This document shows positions 6,500-52,472 of a DNA stretch of 64,000 nt, piece by piece. Both the position numbers and the translations under genes were made by a program. This DNA is from an archaeon (GTDB lineage: Archaea; Iainarchaeota; Iainarchaeia; Iainarchaeales; Iainarchaeaceae), in assembly GCA_035655435.1 (NCBI GenBank), contig DASRUN010000066.1, forward strand, positions 520 through 64,519, in the 5' to 3' direction. The first letter of the stretch is position 1; each line of letters starts with the position of its first letter. Below the pieces are notes generated by a model that saw only the letters and a list, made by a program, of their open reading frames with translations, made no database searches and had not been told where the DNA came from.

Positions 6500-6588
6500 G
6501 CCCTCGTGGCTCAGTGGTAGAGCGGCGGTTTTGTAACCCGAAAGGGCAAACTAACCGCAGGTCGTGGGTTCAATCCCCACCGAGGGCT
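6500..6588 (+). tRNA. tRNA-Thr (TGT) with 17-nt intron
   Basis: Acceptor GCCCTCG/CGAGGGC, anticodon stem GCGGT/ACCGC, loop TTTGTA|A. Canonical 37/38 intron at 6536-6552 (ACCCGAAAGGGCAAACT, with a CCC-GAAA-GGG hairpin). Confidence 0.8.
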
Positions 6589-9145: not shown

Positions 9146-9263
9146 CCCTCCTTAGCTTAGTAGCTAAAGCGTCCGGCTGTAGAACGACATTACTCCTTTG
9201 GGAGAGAAAATAATCGCAAGTGCGGTTACCGGAAGACCCCCGGTGCAAATCCGGGAGGGGGGA
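9146..9263 (+). tRNA. tRNA-Tyr (GTA) with 45-nt intron
   Basis: Acceptor CCCTCCT/AGGGGGG (one G-U), D stem GCTT/AAGC, anticodon stem TCCGG/CCGGA, loop CTGTAG|A. Intron at 9183-9227. T arm CCCGG-TGCAAAT-CCGGG. Confidence 0.8.
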
Positions 9264-22159: not shown

Positions 22160-22170
22160 AGGACATTAAT

Positions 22171-22258
22171 ATAGCAAACGGGAAAGGTAATTTTATAGAT
22201 TCATTTCCGTTTGCTATCTAGCAGACCGCATTTATGCCGTAACTTTCGTGGTCTGCTA
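22171..22258 (+). ncRNA. two-hairpin element, copy 1 (candidate small RNA)
   Basis: ATAGCAAAC-N29-GTTTGCTAT, then (TA)GCAGACC-N22-GGTCTGC(TA), followed by TGATTTTTT. Homologous to 52254-52341. Strand inferred from the downstream T-run only. Confidence 0.35.
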
Positions 22259-22346
22259 TAACCTGATTTTTTCGGAACGAGCGGGAAAAAAATGATTATA
22301 GAATACTTTTATAAGTACTAATTTCCCATTCATTAGAGGAATTTGC

Positions 22347-28148: not shown

Positions 28149-29613
28149 TTTGGTTGACGGTTGGGCGGTAATAGATTCTTATTTTAGGGACAAAAACATT
28201 GCCCAAATGGAAATAGATTCGTTCAACCAGTTTGTGGAAAAAAAACTCGATGAAATAATTGCGGAAAACAAGGAAGTTGTTCCGAAAATCGAGGAAGTAA
28301 AAGTTCAATTTGACAAAATTTCCGTTATAAAACCGCGCATAGTGGAAGCTGACGGCTCTCCTAGAAACGAATTTTTCCCAATGGAAGCAAGATTGAGAAA
28401 TAGAACTTATTCAAGCCCGATTTTTTTGACAATGAAACTTTTGAGAAGAGATGTTGAACAGGATAAAAAACAAACTTACATCGGAGAGCTTCCTGTAATG
28501 TTGAAAAGCAATTTGTGCTGGTTGAACGGTAAAACAAACGAAGAACTTATTGAAATGGGCGAAGATCATCTTGATTTCGGCGGATATTTCATTGTAAACG
28601 GTTCTGAAAAAGCGTTGATGACACAGGAAGTTCTTGCATCCGACAGGGTTATTGTTTCTGAACAATCCGATAGAATTGTCGCGGAAGTTATTTCAACAAG
28701 GGGAGCTTTCAAAGGAAGGGTTAGAATTCTTAGAACTCCTGACGGAATTTTGAATGTTACATTTCCTGCTTCCCCTAGAAAATTAAAATTATTTGTTTTG
28801 CTCAAAGCACTTGGATTGAGAAGCCCGCAAACAATTAAGGAAGCTTTCATTGAACAACAGGAAATTCAAAATGATGTTTTGATTAACATTGAAAATCTTT
28901 TGGTTAAGAGCGAGAAGGAAGCACTTGATAAAATCGGAAAGTTTGTTGCACCCGGACAAGTGGAAGAATACAGGTTGAGAAGAGCCCAGGAAGTTATTGA
29001 TGCATTCTTATTGCCGCACATTGGACAGGATCAAAAAGACAGATTGGCAAAAGCATATTATTTGGTTATGATGGCAACCAAGGCAATTGAAAAAGCCTAC
29101 AAATTGAGAGAAGAAGATGACAAAGATCATTACGCAAACAAGAGATTGGAATTGTCGGGAAAATTAATGGAACACTTGTTCAGATATTCTTTCAAATATT
29201 TCATCAAGGATTTGAAATTCCAAATTGACAGAACAGTTACAAGGAGAAGAAAACTTAACATTTCAACAATTGTAAGACCGGGCGCGGTTTCGGAAAGAAT
29301 CAGATTTGCAATGAGCACAGGAAATTGGATTGGACGCGCTACAGGAGTTTCAAAATTCATGGATCGAGTAAATTATTTATCTCCATTAACGGATTTGAGA
29401 AAAGTAAAAAGCCCATTGGATAAAAACAGGGAACTTTATGAAGCAAGAGATGTTCACGGAACGCATTGGGGAAGATTGTGCGCAATAGAAACTCCTGACG
29501 GACCGCAATGTGGGTTGGTAAAAAATCTTGCATTGATGGCAGAGGTTACGGTTGAAACGGATGAAGAGCCGATTGAAAAATTGTTGAAGGATATGGGCGT
29601 GAAATTAAGATGA
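28138..29613 (+). CDS. rpoB2: RNA polymerase subunit B'' (N-terminal half of split RpoB)
   Basis: 491 aa. IDSFNQFV..., ANKRLELSGKLM, and ends after GLVKNLALMAEV. TTG start overlaps the rpoH stop. Confidence 0.9.
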   Translation: MWFNLVDGWAVIDSYFRDKNIAQMEIDSFNQFVEKKLDEIIAENKEVVPKIEEVKVQFDKISVIKPRIVEADGSPRNEFFPMEARLRNRTYSSPIFLTMKLLRRDVEQDKKQTYIGELPVMLKSNLCWLNGKTNEELIEMGEDHLDFGGYFIVNGSEKALMTQEVLASDRVIVSEQSDRIVAEVISTRGAFKGRVRILRTPDGILNVTFPASPRKLKLFVLLKALGLRSPQTIKEAFIEQQEIQNDVLINIENLLVKSEKEALDKIGKFVAPGQVEEYRLRRAQEVIDAFLLPHIGQDQKDRLAKAYYLVMMATKAIEKAYKLREEDDKDHYANKRLELSGKLMEHLFRYSFKYFIKDLKFQIDRTVTRRRKLNISTIVRPGAVSERIRFAMSTGNWIGRATGVSKFMDRVNYLSPLTDLRKVKSPLDKNRELYEARDVHGTHWGRLCAIETPDGPQCGLVKNLALMAEVTVETDEEPIEKLLKDMGVKLR

Positions 29614-29624
29614 TTGCAAACCAA

Positions 29625-29727
29625 ATGAGTGGGACCGTAGGTCGCACAGGTCTGACGGCGAACCAAGTGCTGCCGAAGGCGCACGCTCCCTTCCGAGGAG
29701 CACGCTCGGACGCGGAGGTGTTCCCGA
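29625..29727 (+). promoter_or_regulatory. GC-rich structured leader cassette, copy A (before rpoB')
   Basis: GTGGGACC-GTA-GGTCGCAC hairpin, CACAGGTCTGACGGCG, GCTCC/GGAGC hairpin, GAGCAC word. Ends GGAGGTG + 7 nt + ATG. See findings. Confidence 0.55.
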
Positions 29728-31551
29728 ATGGTTAAGGAAGCAAAGCAGGCAAAGGTTTACATTAACGGAAGACTTATCGGATTCCATCCCGATCCCATGA
29801 AATTGACAAGGGAAATTATTGCGCGCAGAAGAGAGTCAAAAATCTCCGAGCAGGCAAATGTTGCTTTCCACGAAGATACAAATGAAGTTTACATTAACAC
29901 AGACGCAGGAAGGGTTCAGAGACCGTTGCTTGTTGTTGAGAACGGAAAATTAAAAATTACCGATGAAATTGTAAAGCAGGTTAAGGAAGTTAAAAAAACT
30001 TGGCAGGATCTTATCCGCGAGGGATATGTTGAATACCTCGATGCGGAAGAAGAGGAAAATGCTTTCATTGCTTCAAACGAAAAAGAACTCGGAAAAGAGC
30101 ACACGCATTTGGAAATTGATTCCGCAACAATTTTGAGTGTAATAAGTTCCATGATTCCTTATCTCGAACACAACATGGCGGGAAAAGCGCTTCACGGAGC
30201 AAAAATGTTCAAGCAGGCACAGGGTTTCGGAGCAAGCAATTTTAATCTTAGAAGCGATACTGAAGGATATCTTTTGCATTACCCACAAAAATCTTTGGTG
30301 AAAACAAAAACAATGCACATGGTTGGATTGAATCAGAGACCGCAAATTCAGAATCTTGTTGTTGCAATAATGCCGTATTACGGCTTCAATATTTTGGATG
30401 CAGTAATTCTCAATAGAGGCGCTGTGGAAAGAGGAATGGGAAGAAGCTCTTATTTTAGAACTTATGAAAGCGCGGAAAACAGGTATCCTGGCGGACAGAT
30501 AGATAAATTTGAAATTCCGACAGAAGAAACCGTCGGATTTTTGGGAGAAGGATTTTACAAAAAGCTTGGTCATGACGGAATAATCCAGCTTGAATCCATT
30601 GTTGAAGAAAATGATGTTTTGATTGGAAGAACCTCCCCTCCAAGATTTTTGGAAGAAATCAATGAGTTCGGTGTTGTTCAGGAAAAAAGAAGGGAAACAA
30701 GCGTTACAATAAGAAAAGGCAAGGACGGTTTTGTTGACAAAATTTTTGTAACAGAATCGGAAGCCGGAAACAAGCTTGTGAAAGTTAAAGTTAGAAGCCA
30801 GAGAATTCCCGCGCTTGGAGATAAATTCAGTTCAAGGCACGGGCAGAAAGGTGTTGTTGGATTAATTGTTCCTGAGGAAGACATGCCTTTTACACCCGAT
30901 GGAATAAAACCTGATTTGATTTTGAACCCGCACTCTGTTCCTTCAAGAATGACCATTGGACACTTGCTTGAAATGCTTGCGGGAAAAGCTTCCGCAATGA
31001 AAGCAATGCAGATAGACGGAACTCCTTTTGGCGGAGTCAAACAAGCTGAACTTGAAAAAATGCTTGATGCAGCCGGATTAAGAAAAAATGCAAAAGAAGT
31101 TTTTTACGACGGTACAACAGGAAAAAGAATCCAAGGAGAAATTTTTACGGGACCGGTTGCTTATAGAAGATTGTTCCACATGACCGCGCACAAAATACAA
31201 AGCAGAGCTCGCGGACCGGTTCAGATTTTGACAAGACAGCCTACAGAAGGAAAGGAAAAAGAGGGCGGATTAAGATTTGGAGAAATGGAAGGAGAAACAT
31301 TGGTTGGACACGGAGCGGCAATGCTTTTGCAGGAAAAATTCATTGATGATTCCGATAAAGTTACAATGTGGGTTTCCGAAACCGCGGGAGTAATAGGATT
31401 TGAGGATCAAATCAGAAAAGTGAAGAGGGTTCTTGAGGCAAATGATTCGAAAATTTATCCTGTTGAAATGAGCTATGGTTTCAAATTATTGCTTGATGAA
31501 TTGAAAGCTCTTGGAGTATATCCTAAATTGATTTTGACGGACAAGGTGTAA
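29728..31551 (+). CDS. rpoB1: RNA polymerase subunit B' (C-terminal half of split RpoB)
   Basis: 607 aa. GDKFSSRHGQKGV, NPHSVPSRMTIG, and GGLRFGEMEGETLVGHGA motifs. Confidence 0.95.
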   Translation: MVKEAKQAKVYINGRLIGFHPDPMKLTREIIARRRESKISEQANVAFHEDTNEVYINTDAGRVQRPLLVVENGKLKITDEIVKQVKEVKKTWQDLIREGYVEYLDAEEEENAFIASNEKELGKEHTHLEIDSATILSVISSMIPYLEHNMAGKALHGAKMFKQAQGFGASNFNLRSDTEGYLLHYPQKSLVKTKTMHMVGLNQRPQIQNLVVAIMPYYGFNILDAVILNRGAVERGMGRSSYFRTYESAENRYPGGQIDKFEIPTEETVGFLGEGFYKKLGHDGIIQLESIVEENDVLIGRTSPPRFLEEINEFGVVQEKRRETSVTIRKGKDGFVDKIFVTESEAGNKLVKVKVRSQRIPALGDKFSSRHGQKGVVGLIVPEEDMPFTPDGIKPDLILNPHSVPSRMTIGHLLEMLAGKASAMKAMQIDGTPFGGVKQAELEKMLDAAGLRKNAKEVFYDGTTGKRIQGEIFTGPVAYRRLFHMTAHKIQSRARGPVQILTRQPTEGKEKEGGLRFGEMEGETLVGHGAAMLLQEKFIDDSDKVTMWVSETAGVIGFEDQIRKVKRVLEANDSKIYPVEMSYGFKLLLDELKALGVYPKLILTDKV

Positions 31552-31556
31552 TTGAT

Positions 31557-31653
31557 ATGATGACAAAAATGTTGAACGAAGCTAGTGTGACCGCAGGTCG
31601 TGGCATCGAGCACCGCGAAGATGGCACACCTCTCTCAGCGAGGTGTCGCTGAA
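31557..31653 (+). promoter_or_regulatory. GC-rich structured leader cassette, copy B (before rpoA')
   Basis: Begins with a duplicate of the rpoA' start (ATGATGACAAAAA). GTGTGACC-GCA-GGTCG hairpin. ACACCTC/GAGGTGT hairpin holds the SD 8 nt before ATG 31654. Confidence 0.55.
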
Positions 31654-34266
31654 ATGATGACAAAAAGAATTGAGGGAATTGAATTCAGGATTATGGGTCC
31701 GGAGTTTATTAGAAAAATGAGCGGGATAGAAATCAAGAGCCCTGAAACTTATGATAAAGACGGCTTCCCAATGGAAGGCGGATTGATGGATAATCATCTT
31801 GGGGTTATCAATCCCGGATTGAGATGCAAGACCTGCGGAAATACAATGAAAAAATGCCCCGGCCACTTTGGACACATAGAATTGGTTAGGCCGATTGCAC
31901 ACTCTGAATTCGGAAAAAAACTTGAAATTTTGATGCAGGCAACATGCCAGAGCTGCGGAAGAATAGCAATCCAAGCTGATAAGCTTGAGCAGTTAAGGGC
32001 TTTTATCGGCGATGAAACAATTAATATTGCAAAAAAGATTTTGGCAAAAACAAAAAAAGTGAAAAAATGTCCGCATTGTACTGCTGACAGACGCGAAATT
32101 TCACTTGACAAGCCCACAAACTTTTACATTGACAAGGACAGAATTTATCCCACGCAAATAAGGGAATGGGTTGAAAAAATCCCCGACAAGGATTTGGAAT
32201 TCTTTGGTTATGAACAAGGAAAACTCAGGCCGGAGTGGTTTATCATGACCGTGCTCCAGGTTCCGCCGATCAATCTTAGGCCGAGCATTACACTTGAATC
32301 AGGAATAAAAAGCGAAGACGATCTAACACACAAACTTGTTGATATAATTAGAATAAACATGAGATTGAAGGACAACATTGATGCAGGCGCACCGCAACTT
32401 ATCATTGAAGATCTTTGGGATTTGCTCCAATATCATGTGACAACGTATTTCAACAATAATACCGCGGGAGTTCCTCCGGCAAAACACAGGAGCGGAAGAG
32501 CACTTAGAACTCTTGTGCAAAGATTGCAGGGAAAGAAAGGAAGATTCAGGTACAACTTAACAGGAAAAAGAGTTAATTTTGCGGCTCGTTCAATCATAAC
32601 TCCCGATCCAATGCTTTCAATCAACGAACTCGGTGTTCCCCAAGAAATTGCGGACAACATGACTGTTCCGGAAATAATTACAAAAGGAACCTTGACAGAA
32701 GCAAAGAACATGATCAAGGAAGGAAAAGTAATTTATGTTATCAGGCCTGATGGAATGAGAAAAAAAGTTGTTGAGGCAAACATGGAAGCTATTTTGGAAG
32801 AGCTTGATGTCGGATTTAAACTTGACAGAAAATTGAAAGACGGAGATATTGTTCTCTTTAACAGACAGCCTTCGTTGCACAGGCTTTCAATGCTCGCACA
32901 CAGAGCAAAAATTATGAAAGACAAGACATTCAGATTGAATTCAATTGTGTGCAAACCATACAATGCGGACTTTGATGGAGACGAAATGAACATGCATGTT
33001 CCGCAAACTCCTGAAGGAATTGCGGAAGCAACAGAACTAATGCTTGTTGAAAAACAAATTATTTCCCCAAGATACGGAGCCCCGGTAATAATTCTTGATG
33101 AAGACGGAGTTTCAGGATGCTTTATACTAACAATGAAGCAAACCGTGTTTGATAAGGATAAGGCGTTCCAGTTTTTCCAGTTAATGAATTTGCAGGAAAT
33201 TCCAAAGCCGGATGTCGGAAAGGACAAATATTCAGGAAAACTAATTTTCTCGCAATTGTTGCCAAAAGATTTGAACATGGAGTACAAAACCAAATTGCAT
33301 GACATAATCAAAAGAGAAGATCCAAACAACGCACTATTGAAAGACCCGTACAAGAATGATTTGATAGTTAAGATTGAGAAAGGCCAATTGAAAGCCGGAA
33401 TAATTGATGCGGTCAGTCTTGGAGAAGGAAAAGGAAAACTTGTTGATGCACTTGCAAGGGATTATCCTCCTGCAGTAATAAGGGGTTTTTATGACAGTAT
33501 TTCAAAAATAATCGGCGGTCTTATAACGGAAGTTGGAATGACAGTAAGCCTTGAGGAATACACTCCGAGCAGCAAGATACTCAGTTTGAGAGAAAAAGCC
33601 GTTGAGGAAATGAGAAAAGAAACCGATTCGTGGGTTAAAAAATTCGAGAAAGGACATCTCGATTTAATTCCGGGAAGAAATCAGGAAGAGAGCTTTGAAA
33701 TTTACATGATGAGAACAGGGGCAGCTGCAAAAGAAAAATTGCAGAAGCAAATCATGAAAGAACTTGTTGATTCTGTAATGGTTGATGAACCTGAATTCAA
33801 CAGCAATGTAATGATACTTTCAGGTTCAAGAGGAAACATCATCAATCTTGTAAACTTATCCGGAATGTGGGGACAGGCATCTGTAAGAGAGGGAAGGCCG
33901 AAGAGAGGATTCTCGAATAGATTGATCGCACTCAACAAAAGAAAGGATGTTGGAATAGATGCGGGGGGATTCATTTACCACAATTTCATGGAAGGAATGA
34001 GCTCTTATGAATACTTCTATCACACAATGGGTGGAAGACAGGGAGAAGTTGACACGGGAGTTTCAACAAAGGTTTCCGGTTATTTGTACAGAAGGCTGGC
34101 AAATTCTTTGAAGGATCTTGTTGTAAACAATGATGCAACTGTGAGAACGGCAAACAAGAATATTGTACAGTACAAGTACGGAGAAGACGGAGTCTTCCCG
34201 GAAAAAACATTTAAAGGAAAAAGCGTTTCTGTGAAAAGAGAGCTTGAAAAAATGAGAAGCAAGTGA
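31654..34266 (+). CDS. rpoA1: RNA polymerase subunit A'
   Basis: Zinc motifs [17 protein letters not shown], and the [10 protein letters not shown] catalytic loop. Start set at [11 protein letters not shown]. The ORF-track start 31600 reads through the GC-rich cassette. Confidence 0.95.
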
Positions 34267-35852: not shown

Positions 35853-36266
35853 GTGAAACTTGATTTCGAACAAATACGCTTCATAAATGCATTGGATGAA
35901 ATGACAAGGGCAACTGCAAAAGATTGCTTTATCCACGAAGGATCCATTGTTTTCTTGGTTCCTTCAAAGCACATGAGAAAAGCAATAGGAAAGAATGGAG
36001 TAACGATACAGAAAGTAAAAGAAAAACTCGGAAAACCAATAGAGCTTTTTGAGTATTATGAAAATCCGGAAGGTTTTTTCGAAAAAGCCTTTTACAAAGC
36101 GAGTGTTGAAAAAGTTGAAATAAGAAAAACAAACGACAGGACAATTGCATTTGTGAAAACAAAAAGTGATGATAAAAAAATTATTTTGAACAATTTGAGG
36201 AGACTTGATAAGATAAAAGAGCTTGCAAAAAGGAATTACAATATTGAAGAAGTTAGGATAAGGTGA
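35853..36266 (+). CDS. nusA: archaeal NusA-like KH-domain transcription factor
   Basis: 137 aa. KAIGKNGVTIQKVKEKLGK KH motif, in the conserved position before rps12. GTG start. Confidence 0.85.
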   Translation: MKLDFEQIRFINALDEMTRATAKDCFIHEGSIVFLVPSKHMRKAIGKNGVTIQKVKEKLGKPIELFEYYENPEGFFEKAFYKASVEKVEIRKTNDRTIAFVKTKSDDKKIILNNLRRLDKIKELAKRNYNIEEVRIR

Positions 36267-36292
36267 AAGATTTGTTTACAAAAGTTTTGATT

Positions 36293-36426
36293 ATGAATGA
36301 AGCTCGTGTGACCGAAGGTCGCACACCTCTGAACTCCCGGAACGCCGGGAGCACGTTGCACCGCACTTTGTGCGGGGCTAGTCCAACCGAAGGTTGGACA
36401 CCTCTGAACGCGGAGGTGTCCGCATA
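36293..36426 (+). promoter_or_regulatory. GC-rich structured leader cassette, copy C (before rps12)
   Basis: Five hairpins folded by hand: 36306-24, 36335-50, 36361-75, 36383-97, and 36396-421. The last pairs GGACACCTC with GAGGTGTCC, i.e. the SD. Confidence 0.55.
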
Positions 36427-36864
36427 ATGGCAGAAGGAGAATTTGCGGGAAGCAGTTTGCAGAAAAAAAGGAAAAAGTGGCGCAGAAAAGACAGGAAGCA
36501 CCAGAAAAAAATTAAAGCAAAAATGGGGAAAGCCAAAAGAGAAGATCTTTTGGAAGGGTCTCCGCAAGCGAAAGGAATTGTAATTGAAAAAAGAGGGGTA
36601 ACGGCAAAGCAACCTAACTCCGGAATAAGAAAATGTGTAAGAGTACAGTTGATAAAAAACGGCAAGCAGGTTACGGCTTTGGCGCCAAAAGACGGTGCAA
36701 TAAAATTTATCGATGAACATGATGAGGTTACAATAGAGGGAATCGGCGGAGCACAAGGCGGTCCAAAGGGAGATCTTTGGGGCGTTAAGTACAGGGTTAC
36801 GCATGTAAACGGAATTGCACTTGAAATGCTTAGAAAAGGAAAGAAAGAGAAAGTTAAGAGATGA
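36427..36864 (+). CDS. rps12: ribosomal protein uS12
   Basis: [36 protein letters not shown] signature. Start set at MAEGEF (the track start 36394 reads through the cassette). Confidence 0.95.
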
Positions 36865-36870
36865 TTTTTT

Positions 36871-37494
36871 ATGGATAGAAAAAGCGATACAACAATGCTG
36901 GTTTTCGGAAAGTGGGATACAAGCGGGGTTCAAATCAAGGATCCGAGCCTTGCAAAATATGTTTCACTTGAATCAAAAAAAATTCCCCACACATTCGGAA
37001 AACAGACGAGAAAAAGATTTGCAAAAGGAAAACTTAGTATTGTGGAAAGATTGATCAACAAAATAATGAGATCCGGGCAAGGGAAAAGAAAACTTTCCGG
37101 AAAATACATTAGAGGCAGGGGAAGCTGCGGAAAAAAATTGCAGGCAATGCACATAGTTGAAAATGCGTTTGAGATCATTGAAAAGAAAACAAACAAGAAT
37201 CCTATTCAGGTTCTTATTGACGGAATACAATTCGCAGGCCCAAGAGAAGATATTACAAGAATTAAGAGGGGCGGAGTTTCTTATTCTGTTTCCGTTGATG
37301 TTGCACCTTTAAAAAAAGTTGATGAATCTTTGAAAAATTTGGCTCTTGCTGCTTTTTCCGGTTCGTTCAACAAAAAAACAAGCGCATCAGAAGCCCTTGC
37401 GGCTGAATTGATTGCCGCATCAAACGAGGACAACGCAAGCTTCAGCGTCAAGAGAAGAGACGAAGTTGAAAGGATTGCAAAAGCATCCAGATAA
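36871..37494 (+). CDS. rps7: ribosomal protein uS7
   Basis: 207 aa. LVERLINKIMRSG... and C-terminal KRRDEVERIAKA pattern. Conserved order. Confidence 0.95.
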   Translation: MDRKSDTTMLVFGKWDTSGVQIKDPSLAKYVSLESKKIPHTFGKQTRKRFAKGKLSIVERLINKIMRSGQGKRKLSGKYIRGRGSCGKKLQAMHIVENAFEIIEKKTNKNPIQVLIDGIQFAGPREDITRIKRGGVSYSVSVDVAPLKKVDESLKNLALAAFSGSFNKKTSASEALAAELIAASNEDNASFSVKRRDEVERIAKASR

Positions 37495-37530
37495 TGAGCT
37501 GATTGAATGAAAAATTATTTTACAACTACA

Positions 37531-37626
37531 ATGAGCGAAGCTAGTGTGACCGAAGGTCGTGGCATCGAGCACCGCGAAGATGACACAGGTCTAACGGCGG
37601 ACCTCTCCGCCGCGAGGTGTCGCTGA
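37531..37626 (+). promoter_or_regulatory. GC-rich structured leader cassette, copy D (before EF-2)
   Basis: About 50 nt nearly identical to copy B. Segments AGGTC, GACCTC and GAGGTGT form mutually exclusive pairings. TGA is followed directly by ATG 37627. Confidence 0.55.
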
Positions 37627-39819
37627 ATGGCCAAAAAGGAAGATATTGTAAAGCTAGCGGAAAAGCTGATGAATACTAGAGAAAACATCAGAAACATGGG
37701 GATAGTTGCGCACATTGATCATGGAAAATCAACTCTTGCCGATTCACTTGTTGCTGCCTCAGGATTGATGAGCGAAGAGCTTGCCGGCCAACAAAGAGTA
37801 ATGGATTATGAGGATCAGGAACAAGCTCGAGGAATAACAATTAACGCAGCAAACATTTCCCTTTCGCACACACTCGACGGAAAAGATTATTTGATCAATC
37901 TGATTGACACGCCCGGGCATGTTGATTTTGGGGGAGAGGTAATTCGAGCAATGAGAGCCGTTGATGGAGTTATTCTTGTTGTTGATGCGGTTGAAGGAGT
38001 AATGCCGCAAACCGAAACAGTTATCAGGCAGGCATTAAGGGAATACGTGAAACCGGTTCTTTTCATAAACAAAGTTGACAGGCTTATCAACGAATTACAA
38101 TTATCAGAACAGCAGATGCAGGAAAGATTTGTGAAAACAATTACTCATGTTAATACTCTCATAAAAAAGAATGTTCCAAAAGAATTTGCGGAAGAATGGA
38201 CGGTAAAAGTACAGGATGGTTCTGTTACATTTGGAAGCGCATACAACAAGTGGGCGGTTTCAGTTCCAAGGATGTCAAAAACAGGGGTTTCGTTCAAACA
38301 GGTTTACGAGTATTTGAAAAGCGGCAACCAAAAAGAGTTAGCGCAAAAAAGCAGGTTAACCGAAGCAATATTGGATATGGTTACAAGACACCTTCCAAAT
38401 CCTGTGAAAGCGCAATCATACAGGATGGCGGTTATTTGGAAAGGGGAATCTGAATCAAACATTGGAATTGCAATGAAAACGTGCGACGAGAACGGTCCTT
38501 TCGCAATGATGGTTACGGATGTTAGTGTTGACAAACACTCCGGAGATATTGCAACCGGAAGAGTTTACTCGGGAAAAGTACAGAAAGGATTGAAAGTGAA
38601 ACTTATCGGAAGTCATAAAGAAGTCCAGATACAAAAAATCGGTTTGTTCATGGGCGCGGATTTTGTCGAAGCCGTCATGGTTCCTGCAGGAAACATTGTT
38701 GCGCTTGTGGGATTGAAAGAAGTTTATGCGGGAGAGACAATCAGCACGGAAGCTGTGAAGGCATTTGAAAGTTTCATGAGCGAAGTCGAACCTGTTATTA
38801 CAATTTCGATTGAGGCAAAAAACACGAAAGATCTTCCAAAACTTATTGAGGTTATAAGACAGCTGAGCAAAGAGGATCCGAATTTGAAGACCACAATAAA
38901 TCAGGATACCGGAGAGCATCTTTTGAGTGGAATGGGAGAACTTCACTTGGAAATAAACCAATACAGAATTGAACAGCATCACAAAGTTCCTATTACAGTT
39001 TCACAACCGATTGTTGTTTACCACGAAACAATAAACAAAGAATCCCCGGTTCTTGAATCAAAGAGCCCGAACAAGCACAACAAGCTCAAATTGCACGCTG
39101 AAAAAATTCCCCAAGAACTCTTGGATAATCTTATCAAAAGCCACATTGACGGAAAAATAAAACCCAAAGATAAAGAAATGATCGCAAAATTCCAGGAAAT
39201 GGGTTTTGAAAATGATTTCTCCAAAAAAATTTGGGCAGTGCACAATAATTGCATGCTAGCGGACATGACAAGGGGGATAGAGGCATTGCATGAAATTAGG
39301 GAACTTGTAATACAGGGTTTCAATGATACAATGGATGCCGGACCGCTTGCAAAGGAAAAATGCTTTGGAGTACTTATTGTAATAGAAGATGCAACATTGC
39401 ATGAAGATGCAATCCATAGGGGGCCAGCACAAATGCTTCCAACAATGACAAGAGGTTGTTATGCGTGCATGCTTTCCGCGGATGCTGTTCTTTACGAACC
39501 AAAGCAAAGGTTAACAATTACAGTTCCGGAAGATTATTTAGGAGCGGTTTCTAAAGAACTTGGTTCTAGGAGAACACAAATATCCGAAATGCGCCAGGAA
39601 GGGGATTCATCTATTATAATTGGAAACGCCCCGGTAAAGGAACTAATCGGATTTTCCAGCACTATCAGGGGGGCAACACAAGGAAGGGCCTTGTGGACTG
39701 CTGAATATGCGGGCTATGAATTGCTTCCAAGGGAATTGCAAAAGAAAACCATTGAGGAAATAAGGAAGAGAAAGGGAATGGATCCCGAAGTCAAGCCTGC
39801 TGCATTCTTTTTGGATTAA
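37627..39819 (+). CDS. fusA: translation elongation factor aEF-2
   Basis: 730 aa. NMGIVAHIDHGKSTL, DTPGHVDF, NKVDR GTPase motifs. A His-containing loop (HEDAIHRGPAQ) marks the diphthamide site. Confidence 0.95.
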   Translation: MAKKEDIVKLAEKLMNTRENIRNMGIVAHIDHGKSTLADSLVAASGLMSEELAGQQRVMDYEDQEQARGITINAANISLSHTLDGKDYLINLIDTPGHVDFGGEVIRAMRAVDGVILVVDAVEGVMPQTETVIRQALREYVKPVLFINKVDRLINELQLSEQQMQERFVKTITHVNTLIKKNVPKEFAEEWTVKVQDGSVTFGSAYNKWAVSVPRMSKTGVSFKQVYEYLKSGNQKELAQKSRLTEAILDMVTRHLPNPVKAQSYRMAVIWKGESESNIGIAMKTCDENGPFAMMVTDVSVDKHSGDIATGRVYSGKVQKGLKVKLIGSHKEVQIQKIGLFMGADFVEAVMVPAGNIVALVGLKEVYAGETISTEAVKAFESFMSEVEPVITISIEAKNTKDLPKLIEVIRQLSKEDPNLKTTINQDTGEHLLSGMGELHLEINQYRIEQHHKVPITVSQPIVVYHETINKESPVLESKSPNKHNKLKLHAEKIPQELLDNLIKSHIDGKIKPKDKEMIAKFQEMGFENDFSKKIWAVHNNCMLADMTRGIEALHEIRELVIQGFNDTMDAGPLAKEKCFGVLIVIEDATLHEDAIHRGPAQMLPTMTRGCYACMLSADAVLYEPKQRLTITVPEDYLGAVSKELGSRRTQISEMRQEGDSSIIIGNAPVKELIGFSSTIRGATQGRALWTAEYAGYELLPRELQKKTIEEIRKRKGMDPEVKPAAFFLD

Positions 39820-40976: not shown

Positions 40977-43900
40977 GTGGACAAACAACAGCAAACAATA
41001 GTGGGAATTTGCATTGCGGGAATACTCCTTGGATTGATTTTAATTGTTGTTTTTTTACAGCCAACACCGCAACAAATAGAAAATATTCCGCAAACAAATG
41101 AACAGGAAACAAACAATACACTTTGTTTGGAAAGCTGTTCTGCATGTGAATTTGATGAGGTTTGTGAAACTAACGGAATAAAAACATGCATTAATTCTAA
41201 TTGTGAAACCACAATCAATGCATGCTCGCGAGAACTTCCATTGGAATGTTACATACAAGGGCAGTCTGATTCTGAAAGCATAACAGCAAAGGCAATCCGA
41301 GAAAATAATGTGGATGAATGCGATTCGCTTGGTGGAGCGGAAGCACAATTGTGTGCAAGCGAATTTTATTACAATAAATTTTTGGAAACAAAAGACGTTT
41401 CTTTTTGCGGAAAAATAATTGATTTTAATATCAAAATGAAATGTTTGAATTATGATGATGAACCGCAAGAGCAGGAACCACTTATTCCCACAGATCTTGG
41501 AAATCGAACCGTGCAAACATCGGGAAAAAAATTGGTTGAAAGTGGGAAGAATTTTGCAACCTATGAAATTTCAGGAGACCCTGATAATGATCCTTCAACA
41601 ACCGCAATGGTTACGGAAGTTTATTTTGAACCGGAAGAAATTCGCTTTGCAACCCTGTCAGTTCCCGTTTCTACAGTAACTGGCATGTCACCAAACTATG
41701 GCAGCAATTCTTATGAATGGATTGACAATGTTCTGACAGGCAGGGCATACTGCCGAACCCTCCTTGGCTTTTGCGCGCCTGGCTGCGATTGCTCAATCGA
41801 GGGGGATGCACAAAGGACTTTTTCAAGCGATGAAACAACTGAAACAATTAATCTTCCAAACTGGCAATCGCAAAACTCAGTTGAGGTTGAGTTGGGCAGC
41901 GGCATGTGGGGAAATTTTGTGATATCCAGATTGATTTTCGGGCTGCTTAACTTTGAAACAGCGCCGTGGCATTCAAATACTTCAATTAACATAAAAAAAT
42001 CCGGAACAGGATCTTTCTTTTCAACGGGTTTTCTAGGAACAGGAACCTGTTTTGAACCTGATGTAGAAAGCAGGTGCAATGCAATTGGAGGAACTGAAAT
42101 CAGGCATCTAATGAGCGGTGTAACTCCGGGAACCGGATTGGTTTTGGATCCGGATCCAACAGGAAATGTGGATGTTACAATAAAACTAGACCACGAGGTT
42201 AGCGGAGATTCTTGGGGAGTTTTTGTGAATAGATCAGGCTATGTCTCGCCTAATCCAAGAGTGGTTGTGTACATTAATTGGAACAGGAACGATGATCCAC
42301 CGACAATAACCGCGCAAGTTTGCTCTGTTACGGAAGGGGATGAAACAATAATTTCCTGTGCACCAACATTGCCAAATGACACTCAACTATTAAAGTGCAT
42401 TACAACTTACTCCGACCCTGAAGGGGATAGAGCTGCGGAAGCATATTCTTGGGAGGCGAATGGAAGCGCGGTTCCGTTTGAAGAAAATCAAACCATAAGT
42501 TTAGGCGGTTTTACCAGAACTAATCCAAACACATTCAGATGCACTTTTACAGTAAACCCTTTAAGCCCTTCAACACAACCTGATGTGAGCGTTACTTCCT
42601 TACTCGCAACAGTGGACGCGGTTTCCAACAGCGGAGGCCTTGTTCTCCACATGCCGTTTGACACGGATTTCAGTGATTCTTCAACATTTAATAATAATGG
42701 AACACCGATGAACGGAGCAACAATAACAGAAACCGGAAAACTCTGCGGAGCGCTAGAGCTTGATGGAACAGATGACTTTGTTGAGGTTTTGGATTCGGGT
42801 TCGCTTGATATTGAGAATGAAATAACAATCGCCGCCTGGGTTAACACAGAGAATCTCAATGGAACAAGAATGATTGTATCAAAATATTTCCGACAAGGTT
42901 TCAGAGATAATTATGCAATGATGCTTGTATCAAGTAGTTTATTCGGAAGCTTGGAGAAAAATTGTTTTAGATGCCTGAGCGCTTGGTTCGGAACGGATAG
43001 AGATGTTCCTGCAAACACGTGGAAACATGTTGCATTAACGTATGATGGAGCTCAGGCAAAATTGTATGTGGATGGGCAACTAAAAGAAACATTGGATGAA
43101 ACAGGTGCGATTGGAACAAATAACGAGCCATTGCATATTGGAGCGGAAAAAGAAACTAGCTTCAGAAACCCAAATCCGCCATTTCAAGATTTTTTCTCCG
43201 GAAAAATTGATGATTTGAGAATTTACAGCAGGGTGCTTTCACAATCAGAAATACAAGCGCTCACGCTTGAAACATGCAATGAACCGGAACCTGAAACACC
43301 AACATGTACAATAGAAAATGCGAATCCCGTAAACATTCCACTTGGCGGAACAACTGATGTTACGATTTCGCTTGAAAATTTTACAACACCTCCAAGTAAT
43401 TTCGGAAGTCTTGCATGTGGAGATGGAGCAACTGCATCACGCATAAGCTGCACGCAAACCCAATGTACATTTAGATGCTCGAATTATAATTCCGCGGGAA
43501 CATTTACAATCAACAATCTTTCCGGATTGACAAACGGATCTGAAACCGCGAACTGCAATGGTTCGGCAATTGTTAATGTTCAGGCGCCGATAAATACGGA
43601 TTGTTCAGATAATGGCGGAACATGCAGGAACACTTGCCCTATTTCGGAAGAACGAGTACCGGCATTCACGTGCTCCAATCCTTCGCAAATTTGTTGCATT
43701 GATGTTTGCCCGGATTCTGTGGAAGTGAATGGTTCGTGCGGATGCGGAGGAGTAATAATAAACGATGGTTATTGTTGTGAAGGAATTCCTTCAAGCACGC
43801 AGTGCTCCGAGCCCACACAGAATAATTTGGTTGGAATTAATCTTGAAACGGATAAAAAAGAGTACGGAAACGAAAATGCCGCAATCACTGTTACGGTTGC

Positions 43901-44264
43901 AAAGAAAGCAATTGGATTTGGCGGAAATGCAGGGGTTGCATTGAAGGCAATAAGGGAAAAGGATTCAATGCAAATAACTCTTCCTGTTTCCTCAATGAAT
44001 TTTAATTTTGCGCTAACCGATCCGGTTGGGGAAACAGAACAACAATTGTTCACATTGAACACCGGATCATTGCAATCCGGAGTTTACACTTTGACGGCTG
44101 AAATTACACAAACAATGCCGGAAAACGATACAATAAGGGCGGATAACATTGATTCGGAAACAATAATAATCAAACCAAGGGCAACGGTTGCCGCGCCCGA
44201 AATACACCCAATATTTGTAGTTTTGATTGTATTCGCTGTTTTGATGATCCTTAAAAGGAACTAA
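40977..44264 (+). CDS. giant surface protein with LamG/concanavalin-like domain, Cys-rich modules, CARDB-like region and conserved C-terminal anchor
   Basis: 1095 aa. N-terminal TM helix. LamG_3-type segment LVLHMPFD...ITIAAWVN...WKHVALTYDG..AKLYVDG...GKIDDLRIYSRVLS. C-terminal VAAPEIHPIFVVLIVFAVLMILKRN. Confidence 0.65.
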   Translation: MDKQQQTIVGICIAGILLGLILIVVFLQPTPQQIENIPQTNEQETNNTLCLESCSACEFDEVCETNGIKTCINSNCETTINACSRELPLECYIQGQSDSESITAKAIRENNVDECDSLGGAEAQLCASEFYYNKFLETKDVSFCGKIIDFNIKMKCLNYDDEPQEQEPLIPTDLGNRTVQTSGKKLVESGKNFATYEISGDPDNDPSTTAMVTEVYFEPEEIRFATLSVPVSTVTGMSPNYGSNSYEWIDNVLTGRAYCRTLLGFCAPGCDCSIEGDAQRTFSSDETTETINLPNWQSQNSVEVELGSGMWGNFVISRLIFGLLNFETAPWHSNTSINIKKSGTGSFFSTGFLGTGTCFEPDVESRCNAIGGTEIRHLMSGVTPGTGLVLDPDPTGNVDVTIKLDHEVSGDSWGVFVNRSGYVSPNPRVVVYINWNRNDDPPTITAQVCSVTEGDETIISCAPTLPNDTQLLKCITTYSDPEGDRAAEAYSWEANGSAVPFEENQTISLGGFTRTNPNTFRCTFTVNPLSPSTQPDVSVTSLLATVDAVSNSGGLVLHMPFDTDFSDSSTFNNNGTPMNGATITETGKLCGALELDGTDDFVEVLDSGSLDIENEITIAAWVNTENLNGTRMIVSKYFRQGFRDNYAMMLVSSSLFGSLEKNCFRCLSAWFGTDRDVPANTWKHVALTYDGAQAKLYVDGQLKETLDETGAIGTNNEPLHIGAEKETSFRNPNPPFQDFFSGKIDDLRIYSRVLSQSEIQALTLETCNEPEPETPTCTIENANPVNIPLGGTTDVTISLENFTTPPSNFGSLACGDGATASRISCTQTQCTFRCSNYNSAGTFTINNLSGLTNGSETANCNGSAIVNVQAPINTDCSDNGGTCRNTCPISEERVPAFTCSNPSQICCIDVCPDSVEVNGSCGCGGVIINDGYCCEGIPSSTQCSEPTQNNLVGINLETDKKEYGNENAAITVTVAKKAIGFGGNAGVALKAIREKDSMQITLPVSSMNFNFALTDPVGETEQQLFTLNTGSLQSGVYTLTAEITQTMPENDTIRADNIDSETIIIKPRATVAAPEIHPIFVVLIVFAVLMILKRN

Positions 44265-44278
44265 TAGACGCTGGCGGA

Positions 44279-47443: not shown

Positions 47444-49066
47444 TTGAATGTCATGCACAAAAAAAATATTTTAATGCTTTTTCTGATTTTAACAATATTT
47501 TTAATTGGTTTTGCAACCGCGGAAACTTCAATTCGATGCCAAATAGGTGCTAGTGGAACGTTATTTGGGGTGAGCGCACCAAGCAATGCGCATGTAGCAA
47601 TAAGCACGAGTGAATACGCTAACAAGGTAGGATGCACCGCAGATACCTCAGCACCTGCGTGTAGTGATCCTAGCTCTGCAATAGCACTAAAACTTTCAAG
47701 TGCAACAAACGCGCACGCTGAATCACCAAATCTAAGCAATTACACTCAAAACATTTGCATAAAAGCATCGGCAACAAACCAACAAACTTATTGTTATGCA
47801 CTCAATGATTGTCCAAGCGACTTTATAGGATTGGTAAATCTTTATGGGGAAACAGGGCTAGTGAATGGGCAACTCACTGTAACCAATGCGCTTGTTGGAG
47901 CATACGCTGCCGGCGCACCACACATTTGTTGTGGATTGAGAGACTTAGACGATTCACCTGCTACAAGCTGTACAATAACGGCAAGCCCAACAACAATAGA
48001 AATAGGAGAAACATCAAGCATTGCAGTCACTTGTTCTAATGCATTAGGCACAACACAATGCCCAAGCGATTTGCAAATAGTTTCAACCGCCCCTGCAATA
48101 GCAACTTATGATTCAACCACTACCCAATTAACAGGAGTAAGCGCAGGAGACACAACAGCAAGAGCGACAAGCGTTTCAATTCCTGCAGTAACTTGTGTTT
48201 CGGGAACAGTAACGGTTACTGATACAATAAACAATTGTGTGATTGATGCACAAGCAACAGAAGCATGCATTTGCGGAACAGAAACTGCAAACCCGGGACA
48301 GTTCTGCTGTGCAACCGGAGTTTCTGATACTGCATGCACCACACCAACACCGAATTGTGTTGAAGGAGAAAATACAACCGGAGAAATTTGTTCATGCAAT
48401 GGTACTCCGGTTCCGGATGGAGAATATTGTTGTAGCGGAGTTGCAAGCACAGTATCATGTGATCAGCTTTGTCCGCAAGGACAAATAACAACAACTTGTA
48501 GTTGTGAAAATCAAATCAGAAATTCTGGAGACGGTTACTGCTGCAGCGGAGTTTTCCAAACAACACAATGTACAAACTCCAGTCTGAACCATGTGAAAAT
48601 CAGTGCTTTGAGACTTGAACAAACAGAGTTTTTCAAAGATTCGGAAGATCCGATTACATTTGCAATTGATGTGGAAAGAATTGACGACAGTGTAACAACA
48701 GGATATTTGGAGGCTTATTTGATACACAACATAAATCAAACCCAAACTCAGATTTTTGCGGATCCAACTAATGAATTGGAAGTTAGTTTTGTTGACGCAG
48801 AACCAATGACAATTCCCGTAAGTTTTCCAACAACATCGCTTGCAACTGGCAGTTATAGGCTTGTTGTTCACATAACATCAGAATTTGACAGAGATGGAGC
48901 TGGAAATATTGCAAATGATGAAGGGAAAGTTGATGATAATACAAAATCGGCAAGTATTCTAGTGAGAAGCGGTCCTGCCGGAGGCCCGGTAGCAGCTCCT
49001 GAAATACACCCGATATTTATAGTGTTCATACTCTTCGCGGTTTTAATGATCATTAAAAGGAACTGA
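47444..49066 (+). CDS. surface protein with three CxC...GYCC modules, CARDB-like region and conserved C-terminal anchor
   Basis: 540 aa. Signal peptide. Modules at 48266-48571. The C-terminal VAAPEIHPIFIVFILFAVLMIIKRN is nearly identical to that of 40977..44264. Confidence 0.6.
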   Translation: MNVMHKKNILMLFLILTIFLIGFATAETSIRCQIGASGTLFGVSAPSNAHVAISTSEYANKVGCTADTSAPACSDPSSAIALKLSSATNAHAESPNLSNYTQNICIKASATNQQTYCYALNDCPSDFIGLVNLYGETGLVNGQLTVTNALVGAYAAGAPHICCGLRDLDDSPATSCTITASPTTIEIGETSSIAVTCSNALGTTQCPSDLQIVSTAPAIATYDSTTTQLTGVSAGDTTARATSVSIPAVTCVSGTVTVTDTINNCVIDAQATEACICGTETANPGQFCCATGVSDTACTTPTPNCVEGENTTGEICSCNGTPVPDGEYCCSGVASTVSCDQLCPQGQITTTCSCENQIRNSGDGYCCSGVFQTTQCTNSSLNHVKISALRLEQTEFFKDSEDPITFAIDVERIDDSVTTGYLEAYLIHNINQTQTQIFADPTNELEVSFVDAEPMTIPVSFPTTSLATGSYRLVVHITSEFDRDGAGNIANDEGKVDDNTKSASILVRSGPAGGPVAAPEIHPIFIVFILFAVLMIIKRN

Positions 49067-49133
49067 TATACGCTGAAGGGCGGCCGCTTGTTGAATAACT
49101 GAAAACATCGTAGTCGTTATATTTAAATATTAG

Positions 49134-52165: not shown

Positions 52166-52253
52166 TGCGCTAGCTTCTGAATTTGGTTTCCGGAGAATCC
52201 TAGCAGCACGCCATATTCTCTTTATTGTGGTTTTGGCGTTTGTTTTCCTGCTT

Positions 52254-52341
52254 ATAGCAAACTGGATAAGTAATTCTGTTTATTTGTTGCAGTTTGCTAT
52301 CCGGCAGACCTCAATTAATACTGAAAGCTTGCGCGGTCTGC
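52254..52341 (+). ncRNA. two-hairpin element, copy 2 (candidate small RNA)
   Basis: ATAGCAAAC-N29-GTTTGCTAT, then (G)GCAGACC-N24-GGTCTGC(C), followed by TGATTTTTAAATCTTTTT. TTTATT lies about 30 nt upstream. Confidence 0.35.
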
Positions 52342-52472
52342 CATAGAAGAGGAGATTGATTTTTAAATCTTTTTAATGAGTACTATTTAGCCTTAAATTG
52401 AAGGGAGAAATATGGATTGGAGCCCGTTTTTTGGCTTTTATTGATGTTTGATTTTTTTTGGAGGAATTTTGA

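Follow-up and report, generated by a model that had tools for sequence, protein, structure and literature searches.

We analysed a stretch of 64,000 nucleotides (the window; positions 520 to 64,519 of contig DASRUN010000066.1, assembly GCA_035655435.1) from the AT-rich genome of an Iainarchaeota (DPANN) archaeon, and in particular the segment at 37582-37629, which ends with the start codon of the gene for elongation factor EF-2. As judged by comparison with its other copies, this segment is the 3′ part of one copy (cassette D) of a lineage-specific, modular, GC-rich insertion element, of which the window holds four copies, A to D. Our preferred reading, to which we give about an even chance, is that the element is a mobile, self-masking ribosome-binding cassette that keeps translation of the downstream gene coupled to the upstream ribosome. 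A preliminary description of the window had noticed that the four cassettes end in a Shine–Dalgarno sequence (SD) paired with an anti-SD, and had proposed that one common signal, such as temperature, a ligand, a protein or an upstream ribosome, gates translation of the genes that follow. All the words and pairings it quoted are present in the window where it placed them, and the SD does belong to the repeated unit, 7–8 nt before the ATG in A, B, C and D. A regulon gated by one common signal, however, was not supported, as the cassettes appear to be sporadic insertions, absent from the same junctions in the closest relatives.

The window carries the gene order rpoH, rpoB'', rpoB', rpoA', rpoA'', L30e, nusA, S12, S7, EF-2, which is the same in 18 Iainarchaeota loci; its S12 protein is 90% identical to that of an uncultured archaeon and 89% to that of Candidatus Iainarchaeum andersonii. 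In the closest relatives, the junctions equivalent to sites B, C and D are 17–32 nt long, each with an ordinary GGTG-type SD and without a cassette. At rpoA', the 13-nt sequence ATGATGACAAAAA stands twice, 97 nt apart, and brackets cassette B (left copy, 31557..31569, comprising the native rpoA' start and first codons; right copy, 31654-31666); the duplication includes the start codon itself. In relative L001, the rpoA' junction is just 17 nt and has ATGATGACAAAAC once. The copy at dut (F1) is flanked by a 13-nt direct repeat, GGATTGGAGTGAA, with the dut stop included, and the copy in relative L008 by a 10-nt direct repeat, AAGAGGTAAT, covering the S12 stop and the native SD of S7. Shuffled sequences reached the respective repeat length in 1 of 500 cases for B, in none of 500 for F1 and in 3 of 500 for L008. 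Because the relatives' junctions at B, C and D are short and three copies have flanking direct repeats of 10–13 nt, the four window cassettes are, on this comparative evidence, insertions. Older copies retain at most decayed traces of a duplication, such as TGAATGAAAAA versus TGAATGGCCAAAAA at EF-2. The GC content of the cassettes is 0.51–0.68, as compared with roughly 0.3–0.45 in their flanks (100-nt windows). Seven further public contigs with an identical S12 protein represent the same strain (99.7–100% identity); presence/absence polymorphism was rejected, since all seven carry the cassettes.

We searched for further copies, on both strands, by a pattern scan of metagenome contigs, by nhmmer and with two covariance models (R1 and R2). 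The element occupies at least 13 sites, of 55–160 nt each, in ~110 kb of the host organism. The contigs with the extra copies very probably belong to the same organism, to which they were assigned on shared samples, shared scaffolds (partly the same 100.5-kb scaffold) and near-identical cassettes. All 13 copies share the strand of the genes beside them, and none is antisense. Twelve lie directly 5′ of a start codon, upstream of rpoB', rpoA', uS12, aEF-2, eS28, ndk, aIF5B, spt4, eL18, NMD3 and uS8; minimal cassettes of ~58 nt precede eS28, eL18, NMD3, spt4, aIF5B and uS8, and a long one precedes ndk. Eleven of these 12 downstream genes encode transcription or translation machinery. The remaining copy has no SD and sits 3′ of the dut stop codon. 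In the L3–SecY ribosomal-protein operon of the same genome, only one cassette (S14/S8) is found among ~25 tight junctions.

Over 18 Iainarchaeota and 60 other archaeal loci, R1 and R2 matched only L008, with a clear copy of modules M2 and M3 (see below) in the S12–S7 spacer (79 bits), and L001, with a weak hairpin of the H1 type at the rpoB''–rpoB' junction. Pattern scans of viral contigs gave nothing or chance matches of at most 23 bits, as compared with 74–90 bits for true members. Viral or plasmid origin was rejected; one of these matches, on inspection, was coding sequence without the helices. A metagenome match, L090, was likewise due to chance, its host being a GC-rich bacterium. The family falls into three subfamilies by variant of the display stem (see below), and copies C, A and F are nested or tandem, which suggests repeated rounds of spread.

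A full cassette consists, from 5′ to 3′, of the word (G)AAGC(W)AGT, modules H1, M2 and M3, and an SD unit, followed by a stop and the start codon; the upstream modules are optional, and H1 is the sole one in minimal copies. H1 is an 8-bp hairpin, GUGUGACC-GNA-GGUCGCAC, with a variable middle loop base (A, C or U), and position 4 of H-type stems is always a wobble, a mismatch or a bulge. Among 11 distinct H1 hairpins, 4 of the 8 pairs are compensatory and 89% of cells are paired; none of 500 shuffles was as good, and slid controls pair at 28–42%. M2 occurs in B, D, the ndk copy, the dut copy and L008. Its stem is homologous to that of H1, and in place of the loop it has an invariant 5′-GA/5′-GAA internal loop and a freely variable mini-helix (GC-ACC-GC, GC-ACA-GC, GGCC-GGU-GGCC or GUUCC-GGG-GGAAC). 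M3 is made of ACAGGUCU and a 7-bp hairpin with a CCUC loop (CCUU in L008), and the SD unit of ACACCUCU and a 7-bp hairpin with a GGUG loop. Over M2 and M3 together, 8 of 19 pairs are compensatory and 96% of cells are paired (four sequences), again with none of 500 shuffles as good. Since the copies are related by descent, the shuffle controls overstate their independence.

M3 and the SD unit are paralogues, with 21 of 28 positions identical. Complete copies end in (G)GAGGUG, a spacer of 5–8 nt and the start codon, and the SD can exist in two states: buried in a helix with the upstream ACACCUC, or shown as the GGUG loop of the 7-bp hairpin. We aligned by hand 10 distinct bistable units (six SD units and four M3 units). 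The display hairpin is 98.6% paired, and 6 of its 7 pairs are compensatory over the three stem variants ACGCGGA/UCCGCGU, UCAGCGA/UCGCUGA and UCGGGAA/UUCCCGA. For the closed helix, in which the 5′ word pairs with the loop region, the paired fraction is 86.7%; at its centre, two pairs are C-G in the six SD units and G-C in the four M3 units, switched in concert. None of 2000 shuffles reached either level of pairing, and slid controls gave 25–56%. This concerted CC/GG to GG/CC swap supports the pairing of the SD with a CACCUC-type anti-SD proposed in the preliminary description. RNAalifold, as an independent prediction on five minimal cassettes, returned H1 and the closed, SD-burying helix. Covariation thus supports four predicted structures: the GNA-triloop hairpin, the GA/GAA-loop hairpin, the CCUC/GGUG-display hairpin and the SD-burying helix.

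The computed energies of the closed and display states of SD units lie within ~2 kcal/mol of each other (closed/display, −13.0/−11.1, −9.2/−9.8 and −8.2/−9.7 kcal/mol); for M3 units the computation clearly prefers the display hairpin. The cost of making GAGGU single-stranded was estimated at 4.3–7.7 kcal/mol (37 °C). The predicted probability that positions −14 to −5 are unpaired has a median of ~0.25 for cassette-fed genes, as compared with a mean of 0.50 for 18 other SD-bearing starts in the window (Mann–Whitney p = 0.004). When single sequences with flanks were compared with dinucleotide shuffles, the folding of C was clearly better (z = −4.96), while A (−0.5), B (−0.85) and D (−1.54) folded no better than their shuffles and fail the refutation test set in the preliminary description; the values for the cores only were −0.8 (A), −1.0 (B), −5.2 (C) and −1.2 (D). 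Over the family the signal was strong, with a mean of −2.4 for 12 copies, and chance is excluded.

Use of SDs in the window agrees with a canonical anti-SD: 21 of 66 starts match GGAGGTGAT over at least 5 nt at a distance of 3–12 nt, and the SDs of rpl4, tuf and rps3 that had been quoted for comparison are present. Up to the ATG, cassettes B and D have GCGAGGTGTCGCTGA in common, and A and C have ACGCGGAGGTGT.

Cassette D occupies 37495..37626 at the S7/EF-2 junction (R2, 75 bits; R1, 20.7 bits; all cassettes and their parts are given on the + strand). Its H1, GTGTGACC-GAA-GGTCGTGG with a GNA triloop, is at 37544..37562 (alignment A5, pair counts). M2, at 37559..37586 (alignment A6), is composed of helix I (GTG-G-CATC/GATG-A-CAC), the 5′-GA/5′-GAA loop and helix II (GC-ACC-GC). 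M3, at 37585..37612 (alignment A6, energies), starts with the word ACAGGTCT and continues with the 7-bp hairpin CGGCGGA-CCTC-TCCGCCG, in whose loop the anti-SD CCUC is exposed. The preliminary description had read this copy as a three-segment switch, in which GACCTC (37600-05) pairs either with AGGTC (37587-91) or with the SD GAGGT (37614-18), while GGCGGA (37596-601) with TCCGCC (37606-11) forms a third alternative; M3 spans the first two segments and the third alternative. The three pairings are indeed mutually exclusive, and the arrangement recurs in the independent copy upstream of ndk. In both copies the SD unit lacks a word of its own and relies for its anti-SD on ACCUC in the M3 loop, and this ACCUC can pair with AGGUC instead. 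The third alternative turned out to be the best-supported helix (100% paired, 3 of 7 pairs compensatory, in only four sequences). The SD GAGGTG (37614-37619) is inside a short GCGA-GGTG-TCGC hairpin (37612-37623), followed by a TGA stop (37624-37626) and the EF-2 ATG (37627-37629). An open reading frame (ORF) of 39 codons (37507..37626), with a second in-frame ATG at 37531, reads through the cassette from the remnant of the native EF-2 start (TGAATGAAAAA, as compared with TGAATGGCCAAAAA at the new start), and its stop abuts the new ATG.

Cassette B (31552..31653, rpoB'/rpoA' junction; covariance-model matches) is 88% identical to D over 68 nt (repeat family D6). It has H1 at 31585-31603, M2 (helix I, GA/GAA internal loop, helix II) at 31600-31627 and the SD unit at 31626-31652, where ACACCTC (31626-32) faces GAGGTGT (31640-46); the SD GAGGTG (31640-31645) lies 8 nt 5′ of ATG 31654. 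The read-through ORF of B (31 codons, 31557..31652) starts at the native rpoA' ATG, with the native SD GGTG upstream, and its TGA ends 1 nt before the new ATG. In a public scaffold of the same strain (L081, 5177-5188, corresponding to ~31615 of the window) a run of N falls inside this cassette, where the B/D repeat probably broke the assembly.

Cassette C (36267..36426, nusA/S12 junction; covariance-model matches) is a nested double unit with an internal repeat spacing of 75 nt (repeat family D1). H1 (36306-36324) is followed by a free word, ACACCTCTGAAC (36323-36334), which contains the free ACACCTC at 36323-29, by two additional hairpins (36334-36351 and 36359-36377), by a second H1 with a compensatory stem, GTCCAACC-GAA-GGTTGGAC (36381-36399), and by the SD unit (36398-36425), where GGACACCTC (36396-404) pairs with GAGGTGTCC (36413-21). 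The SD GGAGGTG (36412-36418) is 8 nt 5′ of ATG 36427, and the stop of the 44-codon read-through ORF (36293..36427) overlaps this ATG as TAATG.

Cassette A (29614..29727, rpoB''/rpoB' junction; covariance-model matches) contains two hairpins represented in alignment A5, H1a (GTGGGACC-GTA-GGTCGCAC, 29629-29647) and H1b (GTGCTGCC-GAA-GGCGCAC, 29667-29684), with the word ACAGGTCTGA (29646-29655) between them. Its CTCC (29686-89) can pair with GGAGC (29697-701) or with GGAG (29714-17) of the SD GGAGGTG (29714-29720; 7 nt 5′ of ATG 29728), and its 3′ end, GGTGTTCCCGAATG, is common to A and to cassette H, upstream of S8. The ATG of its read-through ORF (41 codons, 29610..29735) overlaps the rpoB'' stop as ATGA, and the TAA stop is 5 nt beyond the first base of the rpoB' ATG; a gene caller has reported this ORF as a protein in public data (P0001). 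We noted that in L001 an ORF at 1475-1585 likewise starts with an ATG overlapping the rpoB'' stop (ATGA) and passes through an H1-type hairpin, as does 29610-29735 of the window (31–41 codons); the L001 ORF ends ~20 nt short of the rpoB' ATG. These may be orthologous insertions into one junction that have since diverged.

Such ORFs are a property of the family. Each gene-proximal cassette is traversed by an ATG-started ORF of 20–44 codons whose stop lies from −8 to +8 relative to the host start, in the form TGAATG, TGAAATG, TAATG, GTGA or ATGA, or with the stop at +5. In the consensus, the TAG and TGA of GCTAGTGTGA close two frames together and the third frame is open. In intercistronic copies, the ORF usually begins at the native start of the host gene, −4 to +12 nt from the upstream stop, and at rpoB' and spt4 its ATG overlaps the upstream stop as ATGA; the S12 copy is exceptional, with the ATG 26 nt past the nusA stop. 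A native SD precedes the ORF at rpoA', eS28, ndk, uS8 and in the S7 copy of L008. Eight of nine intercistronic sites have the ORF, as compared with a mean of 0.16 in dinucleotide shuffles, and at the ninth two ORFs follow one another. As peptides, seven copies can be aligned with in-frame indels only, the module differences being 24, 15, 75 and 6 nt. Among the signals considered in the preliminary description, the upstream ribosome alone thus has positive evidence, in the read-through ORF that ends at the start codon at all gene-proximal sites; the others have none. A cassette-borne promoter was considered and rejected: the 5′ flanks are AT-rich, but no TATA-like word is seen at a fixed distance.

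According to our preferred reading, ribosomes would initiate at the native signals, translate across the cassette and melt the hairpins that hold the SD. Termination of this relay ORF would fall on the regenerated start codon, and the host gene would then be translated by reinitiation, or by immediate capture of a 30S subunit on the strong, briefly free SD. The folded cassette would disfavour independent initiation, given the 4–8 kcal/mol needed to free GAGGU. Because the relay ORF would open the mask and end on the new start, the insertion would be nearly harmless, and expression would remain coupled to the upstream ribosome. Experimentally, reinitiation has been shown to be lost, in E. coli as in an archaeon, once the distance between stop and start is ~20 nt (PMC10666635), and unfolding by the upstream ribosome of a structure that occludes the ribosome-binding site (RBS) is an established mode of coupling (PMC12548453). 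The proposed relay fits both the distance data (PMC10666635) and the unfolding mode (PMC12548453), and an unbridged insertion of 60–160 nt would break such coupling.

Several observations weigh against this reading. Clear target duplications are seen in only 3 of ~15 elements. Terminal inverted repeats are absent (the best match is 6–7 of 12 nt, which 34–72% of shuffles equal) and no transposase is seen in ~110 kb of host sequence; mobility is something we infer, rather than demonstrate. The ORF property is partly inherited from one consensus, and the sites are, therefore, not independent trials. Moreover, an ORF start near the upstream stop follows automatically if the insertion falls just after the native start codon. 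Some of the ORF starts may fall outside the mRNA; a tRNA and an A-rich spacer precede the eL18 copy, and the 5′ flanks of copies C and D are AT-rich. As to the mask, A, B and D taken singly fold no better than shuffles, the alignment of bistable units was made by hand, and the covariation of the closed helix rests essentially on one double swap. Finally, M3 shares the bistable architecture although it has no SD, and this architecture may, therefore, serve the element rather than translation.

The main alternative is a selfish or neutral repeat of the REP (repetitive extragenic palindrome) or MITE (miniature inverted-repeat transposable element) type, whose hairpins would serve DNA mobilization only, and whose SD, stop and open frame would be passive filters of survivorship; we regard it as possible, though not probable. 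The 10–13-nt flanking duplications, the restriction to one lineage with three subfamilies suggestive of bursts of spread, the nested and tandem copies (C, A, F) and the SD-less M3 would all be expected of such a repeat. C-G-closed G-N-A triloops are, in addition, very stable also in DNA. The gain in folding of sense over antisense is also small (−1.2 kcal/mol, p = 0.04). Against a neutral repeat stand the G.U pairs that are common in the stems under conservation, since the opposite strand would have C.A mismatches there. Nor does a neutral repeat readily account for the sense orientation at all sites with both strands searched, the fixed SD–start spacing of 5–8 nt, the stop placed exactly at the start codon, and indels of 24, 15, 75 and 6 nt that keep the frame, and it would have to do without terminal inverted repeats. 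A further reading, which we consider speculative and rather doubtful, is a transposable translation-initiation module: a mobile element with a bistable self-masking RBS and a stop as its cargo, which would insert or be retained only at start codons and turn the native start into that of a short relay ORF. It may have been co-opted by the host, with a protein that binds the GNA and GA/GAA motifs, or ribosome flux itself, co-tuning a scattered set of genes of RNA polymerase, ribosomal proteins and translation factors in a reduced DPANN genome.

Less likely still, in our judgement, is a dedicated cis-regulatory RNA, in which a protein acting in trans (perhaps a ribosomal protein, or one of the L7Ae/L30e type, on H1 or M2), a ligand or temperature would shift the 3′ unit between SD-buried and SD-displayed states. 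The unpaired motifs are invariant while the stems covary (the C-G-closed GNA triloop, the GA/GAA loop, the irregular position 4, all of which have the look of recognition features), both 3′ conformers are conserved and nearly isoenergetic, and 11 of 12 downstream genes belong to the transcription or translation machinery. Yet a regulator of this kind is hard to reconcile with one cassette in ~25 junctions of the L3–SecY operon of the same genome, with cassette-free junctions in the closest relatives and with target duplications that indicate insertion. Across the whole window, Rfam at gathering scores matched only five tRNAs, and at E ≤ 10 it matched nothing on the cassettes in 36200-37700, which leaves known ribozymes, riboswitches, leaders, and C/D or H/ACA RNAs unsupported. 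No sensor domain was found, and no conserved multi-helix junction is there to form a ligand pocket; a riboswitch was rejected on the Rfam results and because the upstream modules are simple, optional hairpins. An RNA thermometer was rejected because the cassette helices, with 7–9 perfect GC-rich pairs and −8 to −13 kcal/mol, exceed typical thermometer stability and freeing GAGGU takes 4–8 kcal/mol at 37 °C. The ligand and temperature signals of the preliminary description have no support. In M2, C-GAA-GA on one strand and GA-G on the other resemble the two strands of Kt-7, and the adjoining helix varies freely. The compensatory change of CAUC/GAUG to UAUC/GAUA, however, uses the 3′ GA as Watson–Crick pairs, and the internal loop is therefore 2×3 rather than 2+5; a kink-turn (an L7Ae/L30e site) was rejected, as covariation does not back its register, which would leave the non-canonical stem almost wholly mismatched.

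That the cassettes encode small functional proteins or regulatory leader peptides is very improbable. ATG-started ORFs of 20–44 codons are present at every site, seven of them align as peptides and two have been called as genes in public data, but a profile search of 5.8 billion proteins matched only those two ORFs themselves. The aIF5B and L008 copies read the conserved nucleotides in another frame, and the NMD3 copy is in a different frame altogether. Furthermore, the variable columns of H1 are spread 4/4/5 over the codon positions (alignment A5), and changes in the stems are compensatory as RNA and non-synonymous as protein. Three other origins were rejected. A weak nhmmer similarity (E = 5.7) of copy B to the 3′ half of the tRNA at 6500-6588 might point to a tRNA-like origin, but E, F1 and L008 fit the helix I/II model and do not preserve the T-arm-like pairing. 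A bulge-helix-bulge intron at copy B found no supporting pairing by eye. An integron attC site was suggested by GTTGAAC at the 5′ end of B, with no inverse core at the other end in either orientation (by eye); the genes around the cassettes are core genes in conserved order.

The element appears to combine known kinds: its proposed mode of action is that of translational coupling via an occluded RBS, while in appearance it is a small structured repeat. As in translational coupling (PMC12548453, PMC6728339, PMC10666635), an upstream ORF ends a few nucleotides from the downstream start (ATGA, TAATG, GTGA, TGAATG), the stop being within ~10 nt (−8 to +8) at all gene-proximal sites. The predicted structure that occludes the downstream RBS is inside the upstream ORF, the consensus fold burying the SD, and in several cases the neighbouring genes specify subunits of a single complex (B'', B' and A' of RNA polymerase; Rpb7–Spt4). 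In contrast to such systems, the upstream partner here is a spacer ORF of 20–44 codons from an inserted repeat rather than a gene, the mask hairpin, SD and stop come as one portable unit, and the mask is bistable with both states conserved.

Among small repeats, MITEs, REP and bacterial interspersed mosaic elements (BIMEs), enterobacterial repetitive intergenic consensus (ERIC) sequences, Correia elements and Rickettsia palindromic elements (PMC10969869, PMC3184786) are also short, multicopy, hairpin-rich, non-coding, lineage-restricted and co-transcribed with host genes, and some copies have target duplications. With 13 sites of 55–160 nt, the element is short, multicopy and non-autonomous like a MITE, but a canonical MITE was ruled out by the lack of inverted termini. 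Unlike these repeats, the cassettes have no terminal inverted repeats, GTAG-type REP head or partner transposase in sight, and they occur in one orientation and at start codons, neither scattered at random nor placed at operon ends. REP/BIME was likewise rejected, as the head is (G)AAGC(W)AGT and not GTAG, the orientation is single and copies are at gene starts, one of them inside the first codons. Rickettsia palindromic elements, like the cassettes, are found inside reading frames and are translated; they are, however, fused in frame to the host protein, whereas the cassettes would stop translation and restart it with their own SD. With SD-sequestering riboregulators (thermometers, riboswitch platforms, ribosomal-protein leaders) the cassettes share an anti-SD that pairs with the SD, competing alternative helices and, in D and the ndk copy, a three-segment logic. 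They differ in that no sensor domain or Rfam match was found, and in that their presence is insertional and sporadic, not orthologous across relatives.

If true, our reading would show how a tight essential operon absorbs insertions of 60–160 nt at start codons while expression is kept, the insert bringing a stop, an SD and a mask and making the old start that of a relay ORF. The family would also be a natural, compact test bed for archaeal coupling, for unfolding as opposed to reinitiation, and for a bistable SD hairpin with both states covarying. It adds a structured, oriented repeat family to DPANN archaea; in a full-text literature search we found no report of small structured oriented repeats in DPANN, and an account of Diapherotrite transposons covers ordinary transposons. 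Beyond the preliminary description, the analysis adds the read-through ORFs, the competing GGUG-display hairpin, the duplications that flank some copies, and the copies on other contigs.

With their open frames the cassettes mislead gene callers, which call relay ORFs as genes. False N-terminal extensions were also noted: the public call of rpoA' starts at GTG 31600 inside B (true start, ATG 31654), that of S8 starts inside cassette H at L107 14678 (true start, L107 14723), and a mechanical ORF of S12 starts at TTG 36394 (true start, 36427). In the Rpb7/S24e interval of L093, a gene of 65 codons for spt4/rpoE'' (15743-15937; Pfam Spt4, E = 2e-11), with a GTG start directly 3′ of a cassette, has been missed in the public annotation.

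We also noted features outside this family. A double-hairpin element (first hairpin, TATAGCAAAC...GTTTGCTAT; second, GCAGACC...GGTCTGC) occurs at 22170-22262 and 52253-52345 of the window, with 77% identity over 65 nt. The copies lie ~130–180 nt upstream of ORFs on the + strand (a 390-aa ORF at 22347 and EF-1alpha at 52473); they may represent genes for a small RNA, or else a regulatory or terminator element common to both sites. In L004, L007, L008, L014 and L015, matches to EF-2 start at residue 19–35, after 0.5–1.7 kb. L014 2057-2595 reads NIGIVAHIDHGKCVSKDTQIYF upstream of its EF-2 match, which looks like an intein after the P-loop; EF-2 of the window has no such insertion. Two of the five tRNA genes in the window (6500-6588 and 9146-9263) contain introns, which are common in archaeal tRNAs. 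Finally, a direct repeat of 89 nt (82% identical) is found at 44185-44273 and 48987-49075, the former copy spanning the 3′ end of an ORF for a laminin-G-like protein of 1095 aa (40977-44264).

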